Shown here: positions 2,872 through 18,189 of the stretch, piece by piece
Layout of the letters: every line of letters starts with the position of its first letter
Numbering within the stretch: the stretch's first letter is position 1
NCBI GenBank assembly: GCA_964514485.1
Contig: CAZEWG010000037.1
Location: 1 to 22,308, forward strand
Direction of reading: 5' to 3'
DNA length: 22,308 bases
Origin: an uncultured Pseudomonadales bacterium
GTDB lineage: Bacteria; Pseudomonadota; Gammaproteobacteria; Pseudomonadales; Oleiphilaceae
Position numbers and translations under genes: made by a program
Notes under the pieces: generated by a model
Databases searched by the model: none
What the model saw: only the letters and a program-made list of their open reading frames with translations
Told to the model about the DNA's origin: nothing

Positions 2872-2890
2872 GCAGAAACTGGTTTCTGCC
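2871..2890. terminator. Perfect GC-rich hairpin between convergent nrtR and the 369-aa gene (bidirectional terminator candidate)
   Basis: GGCAGAAAC-TG-GTTTCTGCC is a 9-bp inverted repeat at 2871-2890. It overlaps the nrtR TAG stop (2869-2871) and the stop of the minus-strand gene (2890-2892). No U tract follows on either side. Confidence 0.4.
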
Positions 2891-3999
2891 TAAGCAAGTG
2901 CGAATACAGCGCCCACAGCAAGGCCTATCGCGAAGTACCAGAGATAATGTATGGAGGACGCAGGTTTCGCAGTCTCATGAGCTGTTGGTGTCATCTGATC
3001 TGGCTTTGCAGTGGCATGGGCCATTGGGGGAGTCTGATCAGGTTCTGCAGTGTCAGAGGTCACTTGTATGGCTTGATCTGACTGTACAGGGATAGAGGGT
3101 GTCTGTGCTGGTCGATCCGGCTCCGGGGTGTCGCTAGCTATCTCGGCGGAGGGGGCCTGCTCCGTGGGGGCTTCGGTTGTCAGCATATCCAGCTCTGAGC
3201 GGATGCTGTTTAGACGGGGCTCGATGCTGTCGCTAGAGGACTTTACGTCCTCTAGAAGAGATTGAATCTCCCGTGACATGAATTCAATCTCCTCTGAAAG
3301 AGGCTCCACGTCGTTCTGGAGGGGAACGATATGGGTTTGGTGCCAGGTGTCCGCCAAGTGGGCAAGCTGTGGATTGAGGGATGAGCGGGTGACCAGTTCA
3401 ACAGTATGGCTTGCACAATGTCGGGCTAGAACTGGAGAATCATATTCGTCGCCTACAACCAACCAATAGCGCTCTGGCGGCAATAGCTCATCTTGCTCGT
3501 CCAGGGCTTGTACGCGCCAGATCTGGCCCTTAATATTATCAGCGCCTGATGGCCCTCTGAGTACCTCAATGAGCTCTGGATCCCTTACTGCCACGTTCCA
3601 GATCACCAGTATCCGCTCTCCATTGGCATTGTGGGCAACGGCATTGAACGCCAATGCTGAGATAATCTCGCTGGATATGACCGCGGGTGTTCCGGCCCAA
3701 CCTATTAGGATATCTTGGCGTGCGCACTCAAGAGCAAGGGCGTATAGCGGGAGCTCGTCCATGCCGACGGGGTGCTGGGCGTCTTTCCATTCCGTCAGAA
3801 ACTCTCGCATTTCCTCAGGGTCAGAGGACATATAGCCAATGCCGGCGTTAATCTTGTGAACGAACTCCCCCAGGAAGCTGGGGCGCTCACCTGGTTGAGT
3901 TATGGTGGCGACATACATGGGCATATCCCGCCACTTTTCCAGAAAACCGACAAAGCTTGCCTTAATATCGTCTTGAAATTTTAAAAAACCGGCGGACAT
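2890..3999 (-). CDS. Hypothetical C-terminally tail-anchored membrane protein: globular N-terminal domain, short coiled coil, Pro/Thr/Gln-rich repeat linker and a single C-terminal TM helix
   Basis: The 369-aa ORF has an ATG at 3999-3997 with an AAGGAA Shine-Dalgarno 6 nt upstream. Its C-terminus SSIHYLWYFAIGLAVGAVFALA is a clear TM segment. The preceding linker is TSDTAEPDQTPPMAHATAKPDQMTPTAHETAKP. I could not assign the roughly 240-aa N-terminal domain to a family. It is the last gene of the flotillin operon direction. Confidence 0.7.
   Translation of the reverse strand: MSAGFLKFQDDIKASFVGFLEKWRDMPMYVATITQPGERPSFLGEFVHKINAGIGYMSSDPEEMREFLTEWKDAQHPVGMDELPLYALALECARQDILIGWAGTPAVISSEIISALAFNAVAHNANGERILVIWNVAVRDPELIEVLRGPSGADNIKGQIWRVQALDEQDELLPPERYWLVVGDEYDSPVLARHCASHTVELVTRSSLNPQLAHLADTWHQTHIVPLQNDVEPLSEEIEFMSREIQSLLEDVKSSSDSIEPRLNSIRSELDMLTTEAPTEQAPSAEIASDTPEPDRPAQTPSIPVQSDQAIQVTSDTAEPDQTPPMAHATAKPDQMTPTAHETAKPASSIHYLWYFAIGLAVGAVFALA
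2994..3100 (-). repeat. Imperfect 39-40 nt tandem repeat (3 copies) encoding the PDQ(T/M)xP(M/T)AH(A/E)TAK linker repeats
   Basis: TCTGATCTGGCTTTGCAGTG at 2994, TCTGATCAGGTTCTGCAGTG at 3033 and TTGATCTGACTGTACAGGGA at 3073 show a 39-40 nt periodicity inside the coding region. Confidence 0.4.
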
Positions 4000-4147
4000 G
4001 GGATTTCCTTATTCTGTTTCTCTATGCCATCCATGAGGGGATGTTCGCTTGTGGGTGATTGCAGCATCTAGCGCGGGCCCCAACAGCTCTGGGGCCTCTC
4101 ACGGAAGCAGGGTTGCTTGATACGGCTTTGGTGCTTCCAAGTTGCCT

Positions 4148-7100
4148 TTAGGAGGCGGGGTTGCCGTCTCCGCTGAAGGCGCCGCGCCGGCCATTGAGGT
4201 CAGTTCCCAAAGCACGCAGTTGCTCCATCAGCTCTCCCAGGCGCCGATAGGTGCGCACGTCAATGACCAGCTTGCCGTTCATGGCGCGGGCCAGTGGCTC
4301 GAAGCCGCTTTCCATGGTCGTGGTCAGCTTTTTAAGCATCTTGTCGAGGCCTGGAGCTGGCTGGTTAATGACTTCCACCCGGGGCTCCCGCTCCAGCAGT
4401 TGGGTGAGGCGATCCAGTAATGGCTCCATCAGTTCTTGCGGCAGCAGTGGGGGAGCCTCCTGGGACTCGGACTGGGCCCGTTCTGCCTGGGCGGCCAGGC
4501 TATTGAGCCCGGCCCGCAGGGCTTGAATCCCTTCCACGACGCCAATCAACTGGCGTACCACCCGGGCGCCTACATCCTCGTCGTCGCCCCCGGCGGACAT
4601 GCGGCGGCGGAACTCTGTCTTGATCTCTGTCCAGCGCTGTTCCTGTTCCGGTGTCATGTTGCCGCGCAGTTCGGCTAGTTTCAGCAGATTCTCCTCGGCT
4701 CCCGTGGTCAACAACTGGGCTTCGCCACGGTAGTGGTCGGCGATCAGTTGCATCAGCTCGGCCTCGGTCATCACTGAGGAGACCTTCTCCGCCATCTTGT
4801 TCATGTTGCGGTAGGAACCCTGCAGCTTGAACGGCGGCTCGGTGCGGTAGCTGTCGGCCTGGGCGCTGGAAGCGATATACTGCAGGTTGACCCTGAGGAT
4901 CACCTGCTGAATCACAAACAGCTTTTGCAGCACACTGACAATTTCCTGGCTTTCCGCCGCACTGTAGCTGTGGCTGAATTCCGTCGCGGCGACCGGCTTG
5001 CCTTGGGCCATATCCACAAAACGGTAGACGTCTTGCAGGTCACGGCTTGCCAGGGGGGCCAGCACCGGGTTGGAGGTGAGGGCGTTCTCGATGTAGCTCA
5101 GGGCAAAGGCTTCTTCGCTGCCCCCCAGTACGTCGCCGAGGTTGTACACATCGGCGCGGTTGGCGAGCATATCGGGAATGCGGAAGGTCTCGCCGGTTTC
5201 GGTGTAGGGGTTGCCGGCCATGACCACGCAGAATTTCTTGCCCCGCAGGTCATAGGTCTTGGCCTTGCCTTTCCACACACCTTCGATACGACGGGTGGCG
5301 TCACACAGGGAGATGAATTTCTGCAGAAACTCCGGATCCGTGTGCTGGATGTCATCCAGGTACAGCATCACGTTGTTGCCCATTTCCAGGGCCAGGTTGA
5401 GTTTCATCAGCTCCTGGCGTGCCGTGGAGTTACCGGCCTGGTCCGGGTCCAGGGAGCGGACTTCGTGGCCCAGGGAGGGGCAGTTGATACGCATGAACAC
5501 CAGCCCCAGGCGGTTGGCCACGTACTCCATCAGGGTGGTCTTACCGTAGCCGGGCGGTGAGATCAGCATCAGCAATCCCATGAGGTCGGAGCGCTTGTTA
5601 TCGCCCACCGTGCCCATTTGCTTGGCCAGGTTGTCGCCGATAATGGGCAGGTAGACTTCATTGATCAGCTTGTTGCGCACAAAGGTGGCAAGCGGTCGGG
5701 CCTTGAAGTCTTCCAGCCGCAGGCGTTCCCGTTCCCGCTGGAGAAACTGCAGGCGTGCGGCCTGGTAGCGCTCGAAGGCGGGAATGGTCACCGTCTGGTG
5801 GTGGGACAGGCGCTGGACAAATTCATCCAGCCGCAGCGTCAGGGTCTGGCCTTGTAGGTTGGGATGCTGCCCCAGCAGTCCGGTAATGGTCTGTTCCAGA
5901 TCCACTTCGCGAATATCCCTGGGGACCGGAATCTCCGCGGCCACCAGTGTCACGGCTTCATCCAGATAGTGCAGCCGTTCCGTCAGGCCTTCCCGTTTGA
6001 TCCAGGCGGCCAGCCAGGCAGTGGCCGTGGGCCAGGCACTATCTGCTTCACCTTCGGCGAATTTCAGGCTGTCGAGAAAGCCTTTCCACAGGCCAGCCTC
6101 CTGCAGGGAGTGGCGGAACTGTTCTGCCAGTTCGGCGGCGACATGGGTGGTCTCAAAGGCCAGGGCCTCTTTTGCCAGCTCCTCCACCAGATATTCGGCG
6201 GTCAGCGGTAAAGTCTCCGGGGCAAAGGGCAGATGGCGCTGTTCCACAAAGCTCTGCAGCCGGCTTTCCAGTTGGTTGACCAGGGCTTTGAAGGCTTCAT
6301 CGCTCCCCAGCCGCTCACGTAGCTGCACGGCGGAACGGGCCCGGTTGCGCCAGGCTTGGTTGTCCTTGTCGTGCTGTACCTGGGCCCAGTAATACACTGC
6401 CTGGGCCCGGACGGTGACCGGATAGCGCAAGGTGCCTGCTGCCCGGGCCTGGGGAATCAGCTGCTGCAGAATGAGGGCCGCGTCGTGGTCATGGATACCC
6501 CGTTCGTAGCCTTCCCGATAGCGGGGCCCGGCGTAGTCCCGTACCCGGGATACCAGGGCATCCAGGTTCTGGAGCTCTGCCAGGATCTCACTGCGCTTGG
6601 ATGCGAGTTCGCCTGCCTGTAACGCCTGCCAGAACTGATAGGCCAGGTATTCGGCCCGGTATACGCTGGTGGACTCTGAGGCCAGGGTCATGGTCCAGTA
6701 GGGCTTCAGCTCATTGAGCACCGGGTCGTCGACCACCTCGTAATAGTCGGTGCCGGTGAGGTGTTGGGCCAGGTGTTCACCCCGGGGTAGCAGCGTCAGG
6801 TCGACTTCCTGGGTGTTGACGCTGAACCGGTGGCGGGGCCCCAGCTTGATGACCTGGCCGCCTTCTTCGAAGATCTCCGCCTTATCCCGCAGGGCCCGCA
6901 CGCCCTGTTCGCGCATGGCCTTGAAGCGGGCGCTGAGGTCATCGGCCTTGACGGAGGCATCCAGCCCTTGCAGTTCTTCGATCAGCTGGCGCAGTTTGAG
7001 GATCAGCGGGTCGGAGGCGAAGAAGCTGTTAACTTCATCGGCCGTTTGGAACTTGTCCAGGCGCCGTTGCACGCTGGTGAGGATGCGGTTGGCGGCATCT

Positions 7101-9493
7101 TCCAGGTTCTGGGCCCGCTGCTGGCGGGCGTCCAGTAACTTCTGCTTGTGGGCCTCGAAGGCTTCGACGATTTCCTCGCGCTTGCCCAGGATATCCGCCA
7201 GGAACTGGTCGTAGTCGCTGAACTGGCTTTCCACTTCCTGCAATTGGGTGAGCAGGCGTGACAGTAGCTCATCGCAGCGATCCGGCGTATCCGCCATGGC
7301 CAGGGAGCTGGACACGCTTTGCTCCAGCAGGCGGAACTGGGCGGCGAACTGGGCTACGGCCTCGGCCGAGCCAATCTCCCGGCGCTTGTTGTCGGCGCGG
7401 GCCCGGCGCTGGTTAATCTGGGCATAGAGTTCGGAGACCGCGTCGATAATGCGGGTGCGGGTGGTAGCATCACCTTCCTGCAGGCCGGCAAGCAACTCCG
7501 ATACCAGCCCTAACCCTTGGGACTGCTGCTCGTACAGCTCGATGACTGCGGTAATCTGTTCCAGGGTCTGAGCCTCGGCCAGTTGCCCATCCAGCTCGGC
7601 CAAGGTCTTGTCATAGCTGGCCAGTGCCTGGGGCTTTGACAGGAATGCCAGGGTTTCTTTGGACAGGCGGGATTCCGTGGCGATGACCTGTTGTTCCAGT
7701 TGGTCGACGCGGGCCACATCCATATAACGATAGTCGCGGATGGTCAGCAGATGCCCCCGGTGACGGCGCAGTTCGGCCAAGGCGTCAATAAACAGGTCGG
7801 GACGGTCCCAGCTCTCCGGGCTGATCCGGCGCAGCAGGGCGGCCTGTGTCTGTTCCGCCTCGGCCAGGGCCTGGCGGGACTGCTGCTGGATGGCCTGGAC
7901 CTTTTCATATTCGTCGAGGATCAGCTCGCCGGTCTCGGCAATCTGTTTCAAGGCCTCGTCCAGACCGCCCAATTGTTCGGCCCCTAGCCAATGATAGGCG
8001 TCGAACAGCCGGGTAATGGCACGGATCAGGTCGTTGTAATGGCCGGGGCGGATATCCTCCTTGGCCATCATCCGTTCGATGCTGTAGAGCTCGGAAATTC
8101 CCCGCACCAGCTCGGCATTGCCGATTCTGCCGAGAAAGGTCTGTGAGCCACCGGCTTGGGCTGCGTGTTCCTCACTGAAGAAGGGAGTGCGCCAGATTTG
8201 CATGGCATGCACCCGGCTGGCTTCATCGGAAGCCTGCAACAGCACCAGGCGGCCATCGGGGAACAGGGCATAGCTGTGGCCCTGGATAGGGTTGGCCACA
8301 GCCTTATTGATAAGGTTGTAGGTGTGCAGGATCGCGCGGCCGTCTTCCGGGTGGTAGAACACGTACAGCACGTCCTCCCCGTTCGGGGAGACGATCCGTC
8401 GCTTAAAGCGGAAGCCGGCTGCATCCAGGTCAAACCGCTTGAGCTCACCAGTTTGCAGGTAGTAGCCGCTGGGATAAATGATGCCGTGATCTTCCGGCAA
8501 CTGCACGCAGGAGGCGCCAAGCTCGTCGATCCGTACCACTTCCCGGATCAGGCTGTTGTAGACGTAATGGCGTACCTGATCTTCCCGGTAAGGCTTGATG
8601 CGAACCAGGATCAAATTGCCCAGGGCGGCGTAATGGAACTCCGCGTCGTCCAGGGACTGGGTCTTGTCCTCGACCGGGTCGGCATAGATGCCCAGGCCCG
8701 TTTGGGTGTTGTTCTCCACCTTGAAGGTGATGTCACCCTGGATGTTGTCCACAAACAACTGATCCAGGATATTGATGTGGGGGTGACGCCCCTGCACGAT
8801 CTGGTCCCGGCCCACCGGGATCCAGTCAAAATCGGTTCGGGGCGGCAGGACCACATCCCGCTCGCCTCGGTTGTCCAGATACTCCAGCACCTCACCGGTA
8901 GGGGAGAGCGACCAGCGGAACACCCGGATATCCGATTCCTTTTCGCCAATACGGAAGTTGGCCAACAGCTTGCCGTCCCGTACTGCCAACTGCTGCAGCC
9001 AGGGGGCTTTGTAGAAGGTATAAAGCTCGGTGAAATCGGACTGGAACCGGCTGTTATCCAGAAAGCTGCCTTGCACCGGCTGGTGGATAAACTCCAACCC
9101 TTCCGGGCCTTCGTGCAGCTGGTACAGGGAGAAGACATCCTCCACCGCCGTGGTCTTCTGCAGGCCCTTGAAGACGTTGTAGCCCAGCAGGATGTACTGG
9201 CCGACCCGTACCGTATCCCTGGGGATGCAGTTGTGTTCGGTACGCGCCCGTGCCCTGCCGGTCACTTCCAGGCTGGTGCTGCCGAACTCCGCCAGGCGTT
9301 GCTGGTTCAGGTGCTCGATGCGCTGCTTGAGATCGCGGCCCTGCTCCAGCAGGCGGCGGCGAATCACTTCATAGGCGCCGCCCTGGGCGACGGCCTGGGA
9401 TACAAGGTCCTGTTGAATGTCCGAGGTCATGCCGAGTCCAGAAGAAAGGTTGTGAAATCGGTGGCGTTCCCTGAGAGGCGATGGTGATGCCAA
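4148..9493 (-). CDS. Giant (1781 aa) multidomain protein with an N-terminal beta-rich region, a central coiled coil, a single MoxR/AAA_5-like AAA+ ATPase module and a helical C-terminal region; no characterised family recognised
   Basis: A single uninterrupted ORF ends at a TAA stop at 4148-4150. The start is ambiguous. A TTG at 9493 has an AAGGG Shine-Dalgarno 8 nt upstream, and an ATG at 9430 (M22) has a poor Shine-Dalgarno. Walker A ISPPGYGKTT lies at about residue 1311 (nt about 5539-5565). Walker B is VMLYLDDIQH, sensor-1 is in VVMAGNPYTE, and an Arg-bearing IPDMLANRADVY motif resembles the MoxR LDRF region. Residues about 500-900 (nt about 6793-7993) are strongly helical with a heptad-like Q/E/L/A/R pattern. 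Confidence 0.8.
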   Translation of the reverse strand: MASPSPLRERHRFHNLSSGLGMTSDIQQDLVSQAVAQGGAYEVIRRRLLEQGRDLKQRIEHLNQQRLAEFGSTSLEVTGRARARTEHNCIPRDTVRVGQYILLGYNVFKGLQKTTAVEDVFSLYQLHEGPEGLEFIHQPVQGSFLDNSRFQSDFTELYTFYKAPWLQQLAVRDGKLLANFRIGEKESDIRVFRWSLSPTGEVLEYLDNRGERDVVLPPRTDFDWIPVGRDQIVQGRHPHINILDQLFVDNIQGDITFKVENNTQTGLGIYADPVEDKTQSLDDAEFHYAALGNLILVRIKPYREDQVRHYVYNSLIREVVRIDELGASCVQLPEDHGIIYPSGYYLQTGELKRFDLDAAGFRFKRRIVSPNGEDVLYVFYHPEDGRAILHTYNLINKAVANPIQGHSYALFPDGRLVLLQASDEASRVHAMQIWRTPFFSEEHAAQAGGSQTFLGRIGNAELVRGISELYSIERMMAKEDIRPGHYNDLIRAITRLFDAYHWLGAEQLGGLDEALKQIAETGELILDEYEKVQAIQQQSRQALAEAEQTQAALLRRISPESWDRPDLFIDALAELRRHRGHLLTIRDYRYMDVARVDQLEQQVIATESRLSKETLAFLSKPQALASYDKTLAELDGQLAEAQTLEQITAVIELYEQQSQGLGLVSELLAGLQEGDATTRTRIIDAVSELYAQINQRRARADNKRREIGSAEAVAQFAAQFRLLEQSVSSSLAMADTPDRCDELLSRLLTQLQEVESQFSDYDQFLADILGKREEIVEAFEAHKQKLLDARQQRAQNLEDAANRILTSVQRRLDKFQTADEVNSFFASDPLILKLRQLIEELQGLDASVKADDLSARFKAMREQGVRALRDKAEIFEEGGQVIKLGPRHRFSVNTQEVDLTLLPRGEHLAQHLTGTDYYEVVDDPVLNELKPYWTMTLASESTSVYRAEYLAYQFWQALQAGELASKRSEILAELQNLDALVSRVRDYAGPRYREGYERGIHDHDAALILQQLIPQARAAGTLRYPVTVRAQAVYYWAQVQHDKDNQAWRNRARSAVQLRERLGSDEAFKALVNQLESRLQSFVEQRHLPFAPETLPLTAEYLVEELAKEALAFETTHVAAELAEQFRHSLQEAGLWKGFLDSLKFAEGEADSAWPTATAWLAAWIKREGLTERLHYLDEAVTLVAAEIPVPRDIREVDLEQTITGLLGQHPNLQGQTLTLRLDEFVQRLSHHQTVTIPAFERYQAARLQFLQRERERLRLEDFKARPLATFVRNKLINEVYLPIIGDNLAKQMGTVGDNKRSDLMGLLMLISPPGYGKTTLMEYVANRLGLVFMRINCPSLGHEVRSLDPDQAGNSTARQELMKLNLALEMGNNVMLYLDDIQHTDPEFLQKFISLCDATRRIEGVWKGKAKTYDLRGKKFCVVMAGNPYTETGETFRIPDMLANRADVYNLGDVLGGSEEAFALSYIENALTSNPVLAPLASRDLQDVYRFVDMAQGKPVAATEFSHSYSAAESQEIVSVLQKLFVIQQVILRVNLQYIASSAQADSYRTEPPFKLQGSYRNMNKMAEKVSSVMTEAELMQLIADHYRGEAQLLTTGAEENLLKLAELRGNMTPEQEQRWTEIKTEFRRRMSAGGDDEDVGARVVRQLIGVVEGIQALRAGLNSLAAQAERAQSESQEAPPLLPQELMEPLLDRLTQLLEREPRVEVINQPAPGLDKMLKKLTTTMESGFEPLARAMNGKLVIDVRTYRRLGELMEQLRALGTDLNGRRGAFSGDGNPAS

Positions 9494-9570
9494 GGGCCGC
9501 CCTTGTTAGGGCGTGACCCAGGGAGCTCAAAGGTTTGGACTGCGCCCTCCAAAGGAGGGCACTAAGTGGC
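9494..9570 (-). promoter_or_regulatory. Two stem-loops in the 77-nt spacer between flotillin and the giant gene (possible attenuator or processing site)
   Basis: CGCCCTTGTTAGGGCG at about 9505-9521 has a 6-bp stem. GCCCTCCAAAGGAGGGC at 9543-9559 has a 7-bp stem. Neither is followed by a U tract on the minus-strand transcript. Confidence 0.3.
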
Positions 9571-11652
9571 TTAGCCGTCCGTGCCTGTGGTACCGGTGAG
9601 CTGGCTGCTGGCGGTTTTGACCACCGACTCCTTGCCACCGATAGCCAACAAGCGGTTCAGGGCTGCCTGGATGCTGGCATTGCGGGTTACGCCTTCCAGC
9701 CCCTTGCCCACTGATAGGCCCTTGGCGAATTGCTCGAAGTACTCGCCCTGGCCGCCGACGATTTCGATCTTGGCCTTCTGCAGCGCTGAGGACAGGACTT
9801 CGGCCTGTTCCTTGGCAATTTCCTTGTTGGCCTCGATGGACGCCATGGTTTCCTGAATGGCTGCATCCAGCTGGCGGGTCATCATCTCGAAGTCGCGAGC
9901 CTCGGGAGACATCTGGGCCATGGATTCGAACTTCTCCAACAGACCCTGAGCTTCTGCCTTGGCTTTCGCCAGCAGGGTATGGGCAGCCGCTTCGCCCTGT
10001 TCCCGTTGGCCCTTGGCCTCGGCCAGCAGCTTCTCTTCCAGTACCCGTGCTTCGACCAGACCTTCTTCCTCGATGGCTTTGGCCTTGGCCTTGATGATTT
10101 CGGCCTCTGCCATACCCTGTTCGCGCTGGCCCTTGGCCTCGGCCAGCATCCGCTCTTCCAGTACCCGTGCTTCGGCCATGCCTTCCTCCTCGAAGGCTTT
10201 GGCCTTGGCCTTGGTGACTTCGGCTTCCACCAGGCCTTCCCGCTCGAGGGCATCGGCCATGGCTTCTTTGACGCGGGCTGCTGCCAGGCCATCGGCCGCT
10301 TTCACCGCGCGGATACCTTCTGCCCGCTTGGCTTCGGCCAGGGCCCGCTTGTCGGCGGCTTGCAGTTCGGCTTCCGCCAGTACCTGGATTTCCCGGGCCT
10401 TGTGTGCGGCTTTCTGCTCTTCGGCTTCGGCCGCTTTCACAGCTTTGATCCGTTCTTCTTCTGCCTGGGCGGTGGCCTCGGTGATCTTCACCTGCTTCAG
10501 ACGCTCGGCTTCGGACAGTACATGGGTATCTTTGATCCGCTCTTCTTCTTCGGCCACTTTCTTCTCGGTGGCGATCCGCTCGCTGATAGTGACCGCAATG
10601 AGCTTGCGCTCTTCCTCCAGCGCCTTCTCTTTCTCGATGCGCTGCAGTTCCACTTCCCGCTCCCGGGTCACGGCTGCCAACTGGCGCGCTTTCTCCACGT
10701 TTTCAGCCTCGACCACCACGGCCCGCTCGCGGTTCTTGTCGGCCACTTCCACCTGACGGCGCTTGTTGGCTTCGGCAATCTCGATGGCCTCTTGTGCGGC
10801 AATGCGGGCTTCTTCTGCGCGACGACGCTCCTGCTCCCGCACGGTTTCCGCTTCGGCCTGCTCCCGGGCCCGGATCACTTCGATCTCACGCTGCTGCCGC
10901 GCCTGGGCTTCGGCCCGTTGTTTCTCGAGTTCCAGAAGCGCCTCGGTGGTGGCCGTATCCTTGCGGTCAATTTCCAGCTTCTGGTCGTTACGCAGGCGGT
11001 TGGTTTCTTCCGCCTGGGTTTTGACCAGTTCGGTCAGCTTGCGGATACCCTGGGCATCCATGGCATTGTTGGGGTCGAGCAGCTCGATGGGCGTCTGCTC
11101 CAGGTAGTCGATGGCCACGTCTTCCAGGATGTAGCCATTGAGGTCCTCGCCGATGGTCTTGACGATTTCTTCCCGGAACCGGATGCGGTTGTCGAACAGC
11201 TCCACAAACTCCAGTTGTTTGCCCACTGATTTCAGGGCTTCGGAGAACTTGGCATTGAACAGCTCGTTGACGGCTTCCTTGTTGGAGGCGCGGGCCACGC
11301 CTACGGACTTGGCCACCTTAAGCACATCTTCAGGCGTTTCATTGACGCGGATGTAGAAGGCGACCGTGATGTCGGCGCGGATATGGTCCTTACAGATCAG
11401 GCCTTCCTTGCCCCGCCGGTCAATTTCCAGGGTCAGCACGGAGATCCGCATGACTTCCTTTTTGTGGATAACCGGCCAGACCATGGCGCCGGTGAAGTAC
11501 ACCTTAGGCGTCTGGGATAGGTCGTTGACGATCAACGCCTCTCCCTGTTCCACCTTGACGTAGAACAGCTTGAACAGAAACAGCACAGCCAGAATGACGG
11601 CAAAGATGACGCCAACGGCCAGCAAAAATGGCAGCACAATAGACAAAGACAT
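9571..11652 (-). CDS. yqiK: Flotillin-family SPFH protein (YqiK-like), long form with C-terminal Ala/Glu-rich repeats
   Basis: The 693-aa product has an N-terminal TM/hairpin (LSIVLPFLLAVGVIFAVILAVLFLF) and an SPFH/band-7 core (EALIVNDLSQTPKVYFTGAMVWPVIHKKEVMRISVLTLEIDRRGKEGLICKDHIRADITVAFYIRV). A long EA-rich helical region with 40-aa tandem repeats follows. The ATG at 11652 has an AAGGAG Shine-Dalgarno 6 nt upstream, 29 nt downstream of the yqiJ stop. Confidence 0.9.
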   Translation of the reverse strand: MSLSIVLPFLLAVGVIFAVILAVLFLFKLFYVKVEQGEALIVNDLSQTPKVYFTGAMVWPVIHKKEVMRISVLTLEIDRRGKEGLICKDHIRADITVAFYIRVNETPEDVLKVAKSVGVARASNKEAVNELFNAKFSEALKSVGKQLEFVELFDNRIRFREEIVKTIGEDLNGYILEDVAIDYLEQTPIELLDPNNAMDAQGIRKLTELVKTQAEETNRLRNDQKLEIDRKDTATTEALLELEKQRAEAQARQQREIEVIRAREQAEAETVREQERRRAEEARIAAQEAIEIAEANKRRQVEVADKNRERAVVVEAENVEKARQLAAVTREREVELQRIEKEKALEEERKLIAVTISERIATEKKVAEEEERIKDTHVLSEAERLKQVKITEATAQAEEERIKAVKAAEAEEQKAAHKAREIQVLAEAELQAADKRALAEAKRAEGIRAVKAADGLAAARVKEAMADALEREGLVEAEVTKAKAKAFEEEGMAEARVLEERMLAEAKGQREQGMAEAEIIKAKAKAIEEEGLVEARVLEEKLLAEAKGQREQGEAAAHTLLAKAKAEAQGLLEKFESMAQMSPEARDFEMMTRQLDAAIQETMASIEANKEIAKEQAEVLSSALQKAKIEIVGGQGEYFEQFAKGLSVGKGLEGVTRNASIQAALNRLLAIGGKESVVKTASSQLTGTTGTDG
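9994..10233 (-). repeat. Tandem 120-nt (40-aa) direct repeat, two full copies plus a partial one, inside the flotillin C-terminal region
   Basis: ccctgttcccgttggcccttggcctcggccagcagcttctcttccagtacccgtgcttcg at 9995 recurs as ccctgttcgcgctggcccttggcctcggccagcatccgctcttccagtacccgtgcttcg at 10115. The encoded units are KAKAKAFEEEGMAEARVLEERMLAEAKGQREQGMAEAEII and KAKAKAIEEEGLVEARVLEEKLLAEAKGQREQGEAAAHTLLA. Confidence 0.6.
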
Positions 11653-12490: not shown

Positions 12491-12608
12491 GTGAACAGGA
12501 CAGTTGATGTCGCTTTGCCAGAAAGGCCCATGCCGCAGTTCGGAAACTCACTGCCTGTCAAAGGACTGTTCAACGATTGAAGGCCACCATTGCAGAAGGG
12601 AGTTGCCA

Positions 12609-13016
12609 GTGAGCTTGCTACAAGACATGACGTTAAGCCTAGCGAATACGGTGTTCGAAGGACATCGGTTCGACTGCCTGCCCATCTCCGGCGAACAGGA
12701 AGTGCTGCAAGTGCAGGTTTCCGGACTGGAGGAAATGCCGATCTACGTGACGGTAACGGATACCCAGATTCTCTGTATCAGCTACCTGTTCAAGAAATCC
12801 GAGCTCAAGGAAGGCAGCATCAATGAACTCAATGCCTTGCTCCTTGAATTGAGCCTGCCCATGCCGCTCAGCAGTTTCGGCATGGTGGGTGATCATTATG
12901 TGATCTATGGGGCACTGGCCCTGACGGCGACTGCTGAACACGTGATGAAGGAACTGACCACCCTGGCCGGCAACGCGGTTGACGCGCTGCAAACGCTTGA
13001 GCCCTATCTGAAGTGA
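12609..13016 (+). CDS. yjfI: DUF2170 family protein (YjfI-like), the usual upstream partner of the PspA-like YjfJ
   Basis: A GTG at 12609 with an AAGGGAG Shine-Dalgarno 6 nt upstream gives a 135-aa product. The alternative ATG at 12627 gives 129 aa. The protein is acidic with a conserved-looking core (VLQVQVSGLEEMPIYVTVTDTQILCISYLF). It lies 112 nt upstream of the pspA-like gene, matching the E. coli yjfI-yjfJ arrangement. The ORF track's 12504 start adds a Cys/His-rich 35-aa extension, which I treat as leader sequence. Confidence 0.7.
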   Translation: MSLLQDMTLSLANTVFEGHRFDCLPISGEQEVLQVQVSGLEEMPIYVTVTDTQILCISYLFKKSELKEGSINELNALLLELSLPMPLSSFGMVGDHYVIYGALALTATAEHVMKELTTLAGNAVDALQTLEPYLK

Positions 13017-13128
13017 CCGGGTGATGGAACCCGATGACTGAACCAAGGAGAACCGTTGCAGTCGGGCTACCCGGTGCGCCTCGTTGTTCTCAGTGATGCT
13101 TCATTAAGATGAAAAGAAGGATTCTTCC

Positions 13129-13821
13129 ATGAGTGTATTGCGCAAGATCTGGACTGCACTGCGGGGGAGCGCCCGTGAACTGGGTGATGCCGTGGTGGAC
13201 GCCAACAGCATCCGTATTTTTGAACAGGAAATTCGTGACGCCCAGGCTGCCATTGATGACTCCAAGCGGGCGCTGACAGGGGTGATGGCGGACAAGATGA
13301 AAATCGACCGTCGTCTTGCTGAGCTCAATGACCTGATTGCGGATGACGAAGCCAGTGCCGTTAAAGCGCTGGAGCAGGATAACGAGGCCCTGGCCCTGGA
13401 AGTGGCCCAGCGTATTGCCAAGCGGGAGGCTGAGCGTAAGGAGCAGTTTGAAATTGCTGAGCGCCTGGCCTCGCAAATTGCTTCGCTGCGCCAGAAGATT
13501 GATGCCGCCGAGAAGATCATTGCCGATCACCAACGGGAGCTTTCCATTGTGCGTACGACGGAAAGCGTGCAGAAGGCCACGGTCCAGATTGTCGATAACA
13601 TCGCTGCCCAGGACTCCACGCTGAGTTCGGCCCGCAGCTCCCTGGAGCGGATCAAGGCGCGTCAACAGCGGCTGGATGACCGCCTGGCCGCCGGTGAAGT
13701 GCTGGCCCGGGAGTCCGGTGAGCAGGCGCTGGATGAGAAGTTGAAGGCCGCCGGTATTAAAGGTGAAGCAGCGGATGCCAACGCAATTCTCGCCCGGTTG
13801 CGGGCCCGTGCTGAGTCCTGA
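13129..13821 (+). CDS. yjfJ: PspA/IM30 (ESCRT-III superfamily) membrane-stress protein, YjfJ-like
   Basis: The 230-aa all-helical coiled-coil protein begins MSVLRKIWTALRGSARELGDAVVDANSIRIFEQEIRDAQAAIDDSKRALTGVMADKMK, which is typical of the PspA/IM30/Vipp1 family. It has an AGAAGGA Shine-Dalgarno. Its length matches E. coli YjfJ, and it follows a DUF2170 gene. Confidence 0.9.
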   Translation: MSVLRKIWTALRGSARELGDAVVDANSIRIFEQEIRDAQAAIDDSKRALTGVMADKMKIDRRLAELNDLIADDEASAVKALEQDNEALALEVAQRIAKREAERKEQFEIAERLASQIASLRQKIDAAEKIIADHQRELSIVRTTESVQKATVQIVDNIAAQDSTLSSARSSLERIKARQQRLDDRLAAGEVLARESGEQALDEKLKAAGIKGEAADANAILARLRARAES

Positions 13822-13890
13822 AAGGATCAATGAACCTGGCTGCCCATTTTAACTTGCCACCTTGGCTGACAGACCGGGAAGGAGGAATCC

Positions 13891-14223
13891 GTGCCTGACC
13901 GTAACGATCGCTGGAAAAAGGAACGCGAGGCCATTCGGGCAACCCAGATAGCATTCGATCTTTCCATGGAGACCCAGTACAGTGTTAAACGGGCGGCGCT
14001 GGCTGAGCGGCTCAGCCCGCCCGACTATGTCCGTAAGCTGTTAGGCCTGCCCTATAACAAGCGTCCGGTGCGGCCTCGGTTGACGGTCACCTTTCGGCCG
14101 GAAGACTTGGAATTGCTGGGGCAGCGTTATGGCGTTGCCCCCAGTGATTTCATCAAGATCCGGGAGAGGGCGGCGGAAGAGTTGATCAAGGCTGCACAGC
14201 AAAAGGGTGGCGAAGGGCCATGA
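13891..14223 (+). CDS. Small hypothetical protein (110 aa), probably a tandem ribbon-helix-helix (RHH) DNA-binding protein
   Basis: The GTG start is immediately preceded by a GGAAGGAGG Shine-Dalgarno. Two RHH-like units are present. The first is RATQIAFDLSMETQYSVKRAALAERLSPPDYVRKLL and the second is RPRLTVTFRPEDLELLGQRYGVAPSDFIKIRERAAEEL. Each shows a strand followed by helix A, a turn and helix B. Confidence 0.6.
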   Translation: MPDRNDRWKKEREAIRATQIAFDLSMETQYSVKRAALAERLSPPDYVRKLLGLPYNKRPVRPRLTVTFRPEDLELLGQRYGVAPSDFIKIRERAAEELIKAAQQKGGEGP

Positions 14224-14475: not shown

Positions 14476-15428
14476 ATGCAGCTCTCAAGAACGCTTGCTC
14501 TGTTTTGTGTGGAGCCCTGGCTCTCGGTAATCCATTCCCGGCACAAGCCTGGGGAAGTCATTTCGAGCAAGTCAGAGCTGACGCTGTCAAAGGAGATGCC
14601 AAAGCCCAAACAGCCCTGGGCAATATGTATCACGATGGTTTTGGGGTGGAGAAGGATATCGCCAAAGCCCTGGAGTGGTATCGCAAGGCTGTCGATCAAG
14701 GCTATGGGGAGGCTCAATTCCGGCTTGGCCACGAGTACTCAACAGGCCATGGAGTGACCGCTGATCAGGAAATGGCCGTTAAGCTGTTTAAGATGGCTGC
14801 AGCCCAAGGGCATGGCGCTGCACAGTTCCGGCTGGCTGAATGTTATTTGGCGGGACTCGGGGTTCAGAAAGATTCGTTTGAGGCCCTAGTCTGGTACAAG
14901 AAGTCAGCCGATGCCGGACACCTGAATGGCCTGTTGAAGATGGCCGACTTCCATTATCGGGAAAAAGAGTGGCCGCAAGCCTTGAGATATTATGAAAAGG
15001 CAGCGGAACAGCGTAGTAGTGAGGCCCAGTATGTGCTTGGTTTGATGTATTTGCAGGGGCAGGGTGTTGACGCGGATGATAAGAAAGGGGCTCGCTATAT
15101 AATGCTTGCCGCTACTGATGATAAGCATATCGCAGCCAAAGCTGTCTATGGGCATTTGTTATCAAAGGGCAGGGGCGTCTCCAAGAATCCCGATCTGGCC
15201 TATGAGTATTTGTCTGATGCGGCCGAGAAAGACGATGTGGAAGCTATGTTTTTGTTGGCGGAAGGATTGTACTCCGGGGAAATCAATCTGCCTGGCTCGG
15301 ATCTGGTTGCAGCATATAGTGGCGAGTCAGTTGACGATGTGCTGAAGCAGGAAGCCAAGGATTGGTATGAAAAAGCTGCTGCCGCCGGAGACTCCAGGGC
15401 ACGATACAGGCTAAGGGAACGTTACTGA
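14476..15428 (+). CDS. Secreted Sel1-like repeat (SLR/TPR-like) protein; start codon and frame at the 5' end unresolved
   Basis: At least seven Sel1 repeats are present (AQTALGNMYHDGFGVEKDIAKALEWYRKAVDQGYGEAQFRLGHEY, AAQGHGAAQFRLAECYLAGLGVQKDSFEALVWYKKSA, AEQRSSEAQYVLGLMYLQGQGVDADDKKGARY and others). A signal-peptide-like segment KNACSVLCGALALGNPFPAQA-WG lies in the repeat frame from 14478, but that frame has no ATG, GTG or TTG. An ATG at 14476 has an AGGA Shine-Dalgarno 7 nt upstream but sits in the +1 frame. GC content is lower than in the surrounding DNA. Confidence 0.65.
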
Positions 15429-15671
15429 GTCGTTTCACCAACTGTTTCCGGGGGGATGACATTCTGTCGCAGCTGAGCCGGCGCCAGCCAATTGGCAATA
15501 CCGGTGGAGCCAACATCAGTGCTTTTGCGTCCATGCCGATTACCAAAGAGTCGCAGGTGATATTGGAACAGGAATCATAGGCTTGCCGACTGACACCAAG
15601 CATCTTGGTAGTAATGACTAATGGGATAGGCCTGCAAGGTTTTTATTTGCAGTCTGTTACTTTAGAATGGG

Positions 15672-15800
15672 CGCGTCATTGGGGAGTAGCCTCTCTTCAT
15701 CATTGAAGAGGCCTGCATCAACACGCTTGACCGGCAGGTCATGGTGCAGGCGGCCTCTGAGCTTGGCAAGACCTTTGACTATGCCGCACCGGTAGGGCCG
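15672..15800 (+). ncRNA. Candidate yybP-ykoY family Mn2+ riboswitch in the leader of the UPF0016 transporter gene
   Basis: The hallmark-like core UUGGGGAGUAGC lies at 15679-15692, immediately downstream of a putative promoter (TTTTAT at 15641-15646, TAGAAT at 15664-15669). A series of helices follows: CCTCTTCA/TGAAGAGG at 15691-15712, CCTGCA...TGCAGG at 15712-15750 and GGGCCG...CGGCCC at 15795-15830. A UUGGCAAGACC segment lies at 15763-15773. UPF0016/GDT1 Mn2+ exporters are a known gene class controlled by this riboswitch. Confidence 0.55.
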
Positions 15801-15844
15801 GGGCGTGGCGTAGTCATTGGTGGTCGGCCCAGAGAACTGTTTAC

Positions 15845-16420
15845 ATGGAAGCTTTTCTACTCTCGACTGGCATTGTGGCGCTCGCTGAAATCGGCGATAA
15901 GACCCAATTGCTCGCCTTCGTCCTCGCTGCGAAATTTCGCAAACCTCTTCCCATCATTCTGGGTATCCTGGTGGCCACCCTGGCCAATCATGCTTTCGCG
16001 GGGGCAGTGGGCGCCTGGATTACCACTCTGGTCGACCCGGCCATTCTGCGTTGGATATTGGGTATTTCCTTTCTGGCCATGGCCGTTTGGATCCTGATTC
16101 CCGACAAGTTGGAGGAAGACGACACCCATCTTGCGCGTTTCGGTGTGTTCGGCACCACCGTTCTGGCCTTTTTCTTGGCCGAAATGGGCGATAAAACCCA
16201 GGTTGCCACCGTTGCATTAGCAGCGCAGTATGCCGCCTTTTTCACAGTGGTCGCGGGTACCACGCTTGGTATGATGATCGCCAATGTGCCCGCGGTGCTG
16301 TTAGGGGATCGCATAGCCAACCGGCTTTCAATCCGGCTGGTGCATGGCATTGTGGCCGTTGTCTTCGTGATTCTGGGAATTGCGGTTTTGGCAGGGGTGG
16401 ATGAATCACTGGGGTTCTGA
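15845..16420 (+). CDS. UPF0016 / GDT1 / TMEM165-family cation (Mn2+/Ca2+) transporter, MneA-like
   Basis: The 191-aa, 6-TM protein carries the family signature E-x-G-D-(K/R)-(T/S) twice, as LAEIGDKTQ in the N-half and LAEMGDKTQ in the C-half. This is the internally duplicated antiparallel architecture of the family. Confidence 0.85.
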   Translation: MEAFLLSTGIVALAEIGDKTQLLAFVLAAKFRKPLPIILGILVATLANHAFAGAVGAWITTLVDPAILRWILGISFLAMAVWILIPDKLEEDDTHLARFGVFGTTVLAFFLAEMGDKTQVATVALAAQYAAFFTVVAGTTLGMMIANVPAVLLGDRIANRLSIRLVHGIVAVVFVILGIAVLAGVDESLGF

Positions 16421-16448
16421 CCCGGGTTGGTTTTTATACAGCGAAGGG

Positions 16449-16469
16449 GGCATCAGGCCCCCTCGATGA
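16449..16469. terminator. GC hairpin between convergent UPF0016 and nhaP2 genes
   Basis: AGGGGGC-ATCAG-GCCCCCT has a 7-bp stem and overlaps the nhaP2 stop codon. The T run GGTTTTTAT lies just upstream on the plus strand, so this is not a canonical intrinsic terminator in either direction. Confidence 0.3.
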
Positions 16470-18189
16470 CTTCCGTATCTGGCCGGCGAATACCCACTGT
16501 GGTGATCCGGTTTTGCAGCATGCTCCGGACGGAGAGGATCACTTCACCCCGAAAGATTTCAGCCCCTTCGGTGACCTGGTCGCCGAGTTCCTGCCGCAGG
16601 AACTGGTCCAGCGTCAATTCAGGGTCCGTGCCCAGATCCAGGCCATAGGAATGCAATAGATGCTTGACTCGATTGCTGCCTTTGACGCGGAGCTCCTGGT
16701 CGGGCAGATCACTGGCGCCTATTTCCGCGGCATCCGAGAACACATAATCCACAAAGGCCCGCGTTTCTGGTTTGATGACCACAAACAGGCTGTCGCCGGC
16801 GTATAGCCGGGTCGAGCCGCGGGGAGGAATAACCTCGGTATTCCGGGCAATCATGGCGATGACCACGCTTTCTGGAAGTGCCAGTTGTGATAGTAGGCGT
16901 CCGGCTGCTTTAGAATGGTCGCCCAGCGTGTATTCCACAATTTCCGCATCCACATCGCCTAGTGCTGTAATCTCAAGGGTCGCGGCAGGCGTGGCGGGGG
17001 GCTTTTCCGTCAGGCCCAGTTTGCGGGCCACCATGGGCAAGGTGGAGCCTTGGACAGTGGCAGAAATCAAGACAACGAAAAAGACCACGTTGAAAATCAG
17101 CGGGGCCCCCGGGAGGTCATAGATCAGGGGAAAGATCGCAAGGATAATGGGTACCGATCCCCGTAGTCCGACCCAGGATACCAGGGTAATTTCCCGGGCG
17201 TTGAAGCCGAAGAGCTGAAGCACTGGAACGACTGCAATGGGCCGTGCAATAAACACCAGCACCAGGGCGATCATCAGGCCTTCCTTCCAGACTTCCAGGA
17301 GTGAAGTCGGGTTAACCAAGAGTCCCAACACCACGAACATGGTGATCTGACTGAACCAGGCCAGGCCGTCATGAAACAGGAAGGTACTGCGCTGGAACAC
17401 AAAGCGGCTGTTGCCGATCAGGACCCCCGCTAGGAAAATAGCCAGGAAGCCGCTGCCCCCGAGGTTGGCTGCAATACCAAAGGCTGCCAGGCCACAGGCT
17501 GCAACCATCACCGGGTACAGGCCCGAGGCTCCCAGTTGAATCCGGTTGATCACGTGGATTGCTGCCCAGCCCACGGCCAGGCCGACGGCGGCGCCTATCC
17601 CCATCTGCATGACAAATAGCTGGAGGAGGGAAAAACCCAGCGGCAGGTCATTGACCAAGACCTCCAGCAGGCCGACCGTTAGGAAAATGGCCATGGGGTC
17701 GTTGGAGGCGCTCTCAATTTCCAGAATGGATTTCAACCGTTTGTTGATATAGATGCCTGCATTCCGTAACAAGGAAAAAACCGCGGCAGCATCGGTAGAG
17801 CCGACAATGGCTCCTAGTAGCAGGCCTTCCAGAAGGGACAGGTCCAGAACCCAGGCTGCGGCTAGTCCGGTGATTGCCGCTGTGACCAGAACGCCGAGGG
17901 TGGCGAGCACTGATGCGGGCTTCCAGACCAGCTTTACGGAAGACATTGGAGTTTGCAGGCCACCATCAAATAGGATCATGGCGAGTGCGAGGGTGCCCAT
18001 GGCGTGGGCCGCAACGGGGTTGTCGAATACAACACCGCCAATTCCGCCTTCCCCGGCCAGAATGCCGGTGAGCAGAAAAAGCACAAGGACGGGGAGTCCG
18101 AGACGAGCAGAGAGCTTGCTGGAGAGAATACCCAAGAGGATCAGGATGGCCGCCAGCAGAATCAGCTTATCGATGGCAAACAATTGCAA
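16453..18189 (-). CDS. nhaP2: CPA1-family K+(Na+)/H+ antiporter with a C-terminal RCK/TrkA-C domain (NhaP2 / CvrA-like)
   Basis: The 578-aa product has about 12 TM helices beginning MQLFAIDKLILLAAILILLGILSSKLSARLGLPVLVLFLLTGILAGEGGIG. Its soluble C-terminal regulatory domain (VVIAMIARNTEVIPPRGSTRLYAGDSLFVVIKPETRAF) matches the NhaP2/CvrA architecture. Confidence 0.85.
   Translation of the reverse strand: MQLFAIDKLILLAAILILLGILSSKLSARLGLPVLVLFLLTGILAGEGGIGGVVFDNPVAAHAMGTLALAMILFDGGLQTPMSSVKLVWKPASVLATLGVLVTAAITGLAAAWVLDLSLLEGLLLGAIVGSTDAAAVFSLLRNAGIYINKRLKSILEIESASNDPMAIFLTVGLLEVLVNDLPLGFSLLQLFVMQMGIGAAVGLAVGWAAIHVINRIQLGASGLYPVMVAACGLAAFGIAANLGGSGFLAIFLAGVLIGNSRFVFQRSTFLFHDGLAWFSQITMFVVLGLLVNPTSLLEVWKEGLMIALVLVFIARPIAVVPVLQLFGFNAREITLVSWVGLRGSVPIILAIFPLIYDLPGAPLIFNVVFFVVLISATVQGSTLPMVARKLGLTEKPPATPAATLEITALGDVDAEIVEYTLGDHSKAAGRLLSQLALPESVVIAMIARNTEVIPPRGSTRLYAGDSLFVVIKPETRAFVDYVFSDAAEIGASDLPDQELRVKGSNRVKHLLHSYGLDLGTDPELTLDQFLRQELGDQVTEGAEIFRGEVILSVRSMLQNRITTVGIRRPDTEVIEGA

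Follow-up and report, generated by a model that had tools for sequence, protein, structure and literature searches.

A predicted manganese riboswitch of the yybP-ykoY class, with a candidate translational platform, in the leader of a UPF0016 gene

A UPF0016 gene, its neighbours and its putative promoter

The window, the whole stretch of 22,308 nt analysed here, carries a UPF0016/GDT1 (MneA-like) gene of 191 codons at 15845-16420 on the plus strand. Pfam places its product in GDT1/UPF0016 (PF01169, E 4.4e-43, two stretches), and both GDT1 repeats contain the E-x-G-D-(K/R)-(T/S) motif, which reads AEIGDKTQ and AEMGDKTQ in the translation. No NCBIfam model names the protein. By analogy with Vibrio cholerae MneA (PMC7380456), it would export Mn2+ from the cytoplasm. 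A terminator-like hairpin with a T run lies just past the stop codon (16409-16435, plus strand) and the next gene (16453-18189) is convergent on the opposite strand, so the unit is monocistronic.

The neighbouring genes, which encode a Sel1-repeat protein, a Na+/H+ exchanger with a TrkA-C domain, PspA and a LysR-type regulator, have no evident connection to manganese. Further upstream, the minus strand of 2890-11652 holds an open reading frame of 1781 amino acids (4148-9493) with DUF3686 ('ATPase involved in DNA repair'), DUF7902 and AAA domains, flanked by frames of 693 and 369 amino acids that have no Pfam match. This region may be an uncharacterised multi-gene system. On the plus strand, 12504-14223 comprises a DUF2170 gene (12504-13016), a PspA/IM30 gene (13129-13821) and a frame of 110 amino acids with no Pfam match, an arrangement that resembles a membrane-stress cluster. 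The roughly 200 nt between the Sel1-repeat gene and the promoter described below (15429-15640) contain no convincing open reading frame.

All elements of the UPF0016 leader lie on the plus strand. Its putative promoter is recognised by one conserved feature only, the -10 box TAGAAT at 15663-15668. Of the 44 orthologous leaders that reach far enough upstream, 38 have a TAnnnT box 6-8 nt before the first aptamer helix, P1.1, and five of the remaining six have it up to 19 nt before this helix. The first-pass annotation had proposed TTTTAT-N17-TAGAAT. Both boxes are indeed there, TTTTAT at 15641-15646, but the spacer is 16 nt, and 17 is obtained only if the -35 box is read as TTTTTA (15640-15645). 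In either form the -35 box is weak (2-3 of 6 positions match) and has no conserved counterpart among the orthologous leaders, and a consensus promoter scan of 15300-16700 found no sigma-70 site. Judged from the conserved position of the -10 box, transcription likely starts at the foot of P1.1, around 15674-15676, which gives a leader of about 170 nt, the length proposed earlier. At 15632-15652, overlapping the weak -35 box, lies a second terminator-like hairpin (CTGCAAGG...TTGCAG) followed by a T-rich tail; it may be an end point for transcription arriving from upstream.

The aptamer and its conservation

When the whole 22-kb window was searched with cmscan against all 4227 Rfam families, a single match was returned. 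This is RF00080, the yybP-ykoY family, at 15659-15835 (94 bits, gathering score 45, E 7.9e-24), and the UPF0016 gene begins 10 nt past its end. The identity suggested in the first-pass annotation is thus clearly borne out. Model positions 1-177 are matched, with full posterior probability for the conserved cores. Over its 3' third the long model fits poorly, which is to be expected of a variable expression platform. The minimum free energy of the leader has a z-score of -4.2 against shuffles. The element also stands where members of the family are found, in the 5' leader of a gene for manganese homeostasis (MntP, TerC, UPF0016 or a P-type ATPase); here, 65 nt separate the end of the aptamer from the ATG of the GDT1/UPF0016 gene.

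The predicted Mn2+ aptamer (15675-15779) folds into a four-way junction. Its helices are P1.1 (15675-15682 with 15772-15779), P1.2 (15689-15691 with 15765-15767), P2 (15692-15699 with 15704-15711), P3.1 (15712-15719 with 15743-15750), P3.2 (15728-15732 with 15737-15741) and P4 (15752-15754 with 15761-15763). Both halves of the metal-binding site, the family's loops L1 (GGGGAGUAG ... AAGACC) and L3 (UCAACA ... AUGG), are present in the window and invariant across 45 leaders. The L1 core GGGGAGUAG occupies 15681-15689 and is invariant, or nearly so, in these leaders; it aligns to the Rfam consensus with full posterior probability. It lies within GCGCGUCAUUGGGGAGUAGCC (15671-15691), which begins 2 nt past the -10 box, so that the close succession of box and core described earlier holds. 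The L3 loop UCAACACGC (15718-15726) contains UCAACA and matches the Rfam consensus GUCAACAUAC; in the alignment of 45 sequences (A2), T60, C61, A62, C64 and A65 do not vary. The helices that follow the core had been outlined correctly in part. CCUGCA (15712-15717) and UGCAGG (15745-15750) pair within P3.1 as proposed, and the UUGGCAAGACC element is found at 15763-15773. The 5' strand of P2, on the other hand, is UCUCUUCA within CCUCUCUUCA and not CCUCUUCA.

Covariation supports this fold. We counted pairs on alignment A2 for P1.1, P1.2, P2, P3.1 and P3.2, pooled with a sixth helix, c.c', that lies beyond the aptamer and is described below. In this pool, 90.5% of the cells are paired, with 164 compensatory cells compared to 42 in shuffles, and 25 of the 37 pairs have changes on both sides. 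None of 500 shuffles reached the observed values, and pairing fell to 27-45% when the registers were slid by 1-3 columns. P1.1 carries a conserved UU/UU mismatch between its GUCA/UGAC and GG/CC parts, which makes it an intrinsically weak helix.

The relatives behind these counts come from a tblastn search of a collection with one genome per species, which confirmed 582 relatives of the UPF0016 protein. The best orthologues are from betaproteobacterial metagenome-assembled genomes and are 77% identical in protein sequence, which implies that the source organism is absent from the collection. Leaders were compared for the best 80 of the 582, from beta- and gammaproteobacteria. Of the first 20 loci, 12 have an RF00080 match immediately before the orthologue. 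An nhmmer search, using a profile built from the RF00080-positive leaders, recovered the full leader of about 170 nt in 45 of the 80, always ending at the start codon. In the other 35 of these closest orthologue loci no full leader was recovered, and among the first 20 loci 8 gave no RF00080 match (loci lacking the match or the leader include L004, L007, L008, L010, L013, L017, L018 and L020). A small number of the leader-lacking loci lie at contig ends, where the upstream sequence is missing. In a published screen, UPF0016 genes were found behind yybP-ykoY elements in 328 of the 333 strains that have a UPF0016 gene (PMC7380456). The riboswitch therefore appears to be less universal in the present orthologue group. 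The same screen documents UPF0016 genes as a target class of this RNA, as had been stated for this locus.

Taken together, the leader element is almost certainly a Mn2+ riboswitch of the yybP-ykoY class that controls the UPF0016/MneA-type gene at 15845-16420. That the aptamer binds Mn2+ and that expression responds to it are predictions from its membership in RF00080.

A conserved expression platform

Conservation among the orthologous leaders extends past the aptamer. The 5' strand of P1.1, GUCAUUGG (15675-15682), has a second copy at 15813-15820. This copy is part of an alternative, anti-aptamer hairpin (15771-15821), whose 5' strand (15771-15787) takes in the whole 3' strand of P1.1 and whose 3' strand (15805-15821) takes in the GUCAUUGG copy. 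Because 15772-15779 is common to both, P1.1 and the alternative hairpin are mutually exclusive. The hairpin appears in every unconstrained fold shown, for the window and for its relatives. Compensatory changes occur in 12 of its 17 pairs, with 73.7% of cells paired, and the whole alternative structure tested is 72.3% paired in register compared to 31-43% for slid controls. In lineages whose P1.1 sequence differs, such as the Oxalobacteraceae and Burkholderia groups, the sequence of the copy is altered in step. RNAalifold, applied to the post-aptamer region, recovered only 9 base pairs at the outer end of this helix, as indels misalign its interior. A small apical hairpin within the helix, CUCCGG/CCGGGG, was poorly supported (64-71% paired) and was discarded.

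Unconstrained folds continue the alternative helix downward, pairing ACC with GGU, GGC/GCU with GUCGGC and finally CUCUG with CAGAG. This last step reaches the ribosome-binding region. The window has a weak Shine-Dalgarno-like element, CAGAGAA, at 15830-15836, 8-9 nt before the ATG, for which the best match of the 16S rRNA 3' tail is -2.9 kcal/mol; relatives have GGGAG or GGAG at this position. CUCUG (15755-15759) lies in the loop of P4, and it pairs with CAGAG (15830-15834) in minimum-free-energy folds, making it a candidate anti-Shine-Dalgarno. The window and several relatives are predicted to fold into the extended helix with this pairing; one of these relatives (L024) forms 10 perfect base pairs between P4 loop and Shine-Dalgarno. 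The change from UUCCC/GGGAG in relatives to CUCUG/CAGAG in the window is a double change. After removal of near-duplicates, the P4 segment forms a more stable duplex with the Shine-Dalgarno-to-AUG stretch of its own leader than with those of others (-6.93 versus -5.41 kcal/mol); the permutation p is 5e-5 whether or not the near-duplicates are kept. Towards c' it has no preference for its own partner (p 0.19).

A further conserved element is the helix c.c'. Its 5' arm c, GGGCCGG (15795-15801), is part of the apical region of the alternative hairpin, and its 3' arm c', UCGGCCC (15824-15830), stands directly 5' of the Shine-Dalgarno-like element. It is 91.9% paired with three compensatory pairs, with variants such as GACCGG/CCGGUC (L047, L066) and GGGUCGGGC/GCCCGACCC (L059), and it passes the duplex test of own against other partners (p 5e-5). 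In the first-pass annotation, its core GGGCCG (15795-15800) and CGGCCC (15825-15830) had been read as a helix that could gate ribosome access. The helix is real, covaries and ends 14 nt before the ATG as described, but it does not extend into the Shine-Dalgarno region, and a role as gate is less likely. Since the extended alternative helix uses c' in its lower part, the two are incompatible, and c.c' more likely holds the switch open. The comparative evidence instead points to the long alternative helix as the gate, which would use the 3' strand of P1.1 and end in the pairing of P4 loop and Shine-Dalgarno.

Together, these elements suggest how the switch could work. Without Mn2+, the GUCAUUGG copy (15813-15820) would take the place of the 5' strand in P1.1, a weak helix, and the alternative helix would zip down through GGC and ACC to the CUCUG/CAGAG pairing. 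The ribosome-binding region would then be buried and initiation blocked (OFF). When Mn2+ is present, L1 and L3 would dock and so lock P1.1, P1.2 and P4. The GUCAUUGG copy would be left single-stranded, c' would pair back to c and the Shine-Dalgarno region would be free (ON). The released copy strand may serve as the linker that lets c' reach c, which suggests that c.c' forms a pseudoknot with the loop of the upper hairpin. We offer only tentatively, and doubt more than we believe, that c.c' is such an ON-state pseudoknot, possible only once the duplicated GUCAUUGG strand has been released. As for the sequestering mechanism in this particular form, we lean towards it by a small degree. Our confidence in the direction of the response is considerably greater: from the comparative evidence and from precedent, the switch is very likely Mn-ON.

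Fold predictions do not separate the two states significantly. The predicted accessibility of the Shine-Dalgarno core differs weakly between them (0.29 versus 0.35, Wilcoxon p 0.08; 0.17 versus 0.22 for the window itself). A cruder comparison of ribosome-site accessibility from folds of sub-sequences gave p 0.79, and the unpaired probability of the ribosome site did not differ significantly between folds with P1.1 forced and free. Under a nearest-neighbour model that ignores tertiary contacts and pseudoknots, forcing the aptamer costs on average about 14 kcal/mol relative to the free fold. This gap is large for a reversible switch, though the model leaves out the tertiary contacts of the aptamer. 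When P1.1 alone was forced in the window, the upper hairpin persisted and c.c' did not form.

A further pairing was seen in the unconstrained fold of the window. The L1 segment GGGAGUAG (15682-15689) is a perfect 8-bp complement of CUACUCUC (15857-15864), which covers codons 5-7 of the UPF0016 gene. Orthologues have CUC(A/G)UCUC at this place, and the complementarity is probably specific to the window. It could add to the block of initiation when the aptamer is unfolded.

Regulatory logic and comparison with known systems

The leaders of relatives also bear on the role of the alternative helix. Counted by alignment column, nine of the 45 orthologous leaders (L006, L056, L060, L042, L048, L001, L037, L027 and L049) have a run of at least four U (4-7 U) straight after it. 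The window has GGUCGGCCC at this place, and neither it nor the other 35 leaders have a U run. The U-run leaders resemble the classical terminator that forms without Mn2+, which identifies the alternative helix as the OFF-state structure. Mn2+ would in that case turn expression on. This agrees with E. coli mntP and alx, which are translational Mn-ON switches (PMC13594968), and with mneA, which is induced by manganese and encodes, in Vibrio, an exporter behind a yybP-ykoY switch (PMC7380456, PMC13274385). Across the relatives, the platform seems to be drifting between control of translation and control of transcription. For the window, the lack of a terminator U tract noted earlier is confirmed, and a translational platform is a reasonable reading.

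The same aptamer could nevertheless act mainly on transcription, either through early Rho-dependent termination when the Shine-Dalgarno region is buried and the leader untranslated, or because the alternative helix itself is a weak intrinsic terminator. In that case, initiation of translation would be no more than the trigger, or would not be the regulated step. This possibility is compatible with the translational model. The nine leaders with U runs suggest that termination is used in part of the lineage, and a review describes the riboswitch control of UPF0016 genes as transcriptional (PMC7380456). The window, however, has GGUCGGCCC and no U run after the helix, a scan of the leader found no terminator-like site inside it, and the RNA-seq coverage of Vibrio parahaemolyticus mneA does not fall markedly at the riboswitch (PMC13274385). 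On balance, we regard mainly transcriptional control as unlikely at this locus.

An inverted, Mn-OFF switch would use the same parts in another way. Here, locking of P1.1 would pair c with c', and the freed pyrimidine stretch 5' of c (CCUCC in relatives) would pair with the Shine-Dalgarno. In the metal-free state, CCUCC would be tied up in the alternative hairpin and the ribosome site would stay open. Such a scheme would account for the conservation of c.c' and for its ending right at the Shine-Dalgarno region, and many relatives do have CUCC 5' of c and GGAG 3' of c'. In some of them, for example L002, L076 and L060, the Shine-Dalgarno core is predicted to be less accessible in the aptamer-locked fold, and the predicted accessibility of the ribosome site does not separate the two states. 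However, CCUCC is not supported as an anti-Shine-Dalgarno by the duplex test, its covariation with the Shine-Dalgarno being insignificant (p 0.09) where that of the P4 segment is significant (p 5e-5), and the window has CACCGG in its place. The U runs past the alternative helix in 9 of 45 relatives mark this helix as the OFF structure, contrary to the inverted scheme. To our knowledge, every characterised yybP-ykoY switch is Mn-ON. A Mn-OFF switch would be the first of its kind and would imply uptake or another non-export role for the UPF0016 protein. The mneA gene is induced by manganese (PMC7380456, PMC13274385). We therefore consider an inverted switch very improbable. That the match is a decayed aptamer or a chance resemblance to one, without any regulatory function, is effectively refuted: nothing speaks for it specifically beyond the poorly matched 3' third of RF00080 and the weak Shine-Dalgarno element, and against it stand a score twice the gathering threshold, intact L1 and L3 cores, helices with compensatory changes and a whole leader conserved upstream of orthologues in many genera.

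Taken as a whole, the locus is thus very probably best explained by an RF00080 riboswitch in a leader of about 170 nt that likely turns translation on as cytoplasmic Mn2+ rises. That this riboswitch precedes UPF0016 genes is already published; the arrangement is ordinary and documented in hundreds of bacteria. What is added here is solely the conserved wiring diagram of the translational platform, made up of the duplicated P1.1 strand, the P4 loop as predicted anti-Shine-Dalgarno and the covarying c.c' helix. It provides a testable scheme for translational Mn2+ switches before beta- and gammaproteobacterial UPF0016 genes. For annotation, this means that 15845-16420 can be described as a manganese-responsive exporter (predicted), and the 204-nt interval before it as a regulatory RNA and not an unexplained spacer. 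The U run that close relatives add to the same helix is a small example of a platform drifting between translational and transcriptional modes.

Among characterised switches, those of Lactococcus lactis yoaB and Bacillus subtilis yybP, which are transcriptional, likewise share the 3' strand of P1.1 between the aptamer and an alternative helix (PMC8632737). There, the alternative helix is an intrinsic terminator, whereas in the window it has no U tract and reaches the ribosome-binding region. Both the duplicated GUCAUUGG strand and c.c' are features that we describe for the lineage of the window only. In the work of Price (2015) and Dambach (2015), a P1.1 stabilised by Mn2+ reportedly prevents the OFF structure of yoaB and yybP.

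Two further known systems are proteobacterial. E. coli mntP has the same four-way-junction aptamer in a long leader without an intrinsic terminator and is activated translationally by Mn2+ (PMC13594968, PMC8632737). It differs in controlling an exporter of the MntP family, and in a promoter that is also under MntR, Fur and H-NS, where the promoter of the window shows only a conserved -10 box. The mneA genes of Vibrio cholerae and V. parahaemolyticus share with the window the Rfam family, a two-repeat UPF0016 protein with E-x-G-D-K-T and the expected induction by manganese (PMC7380456, PMC13274385); they differ from it in the lineage of the host.
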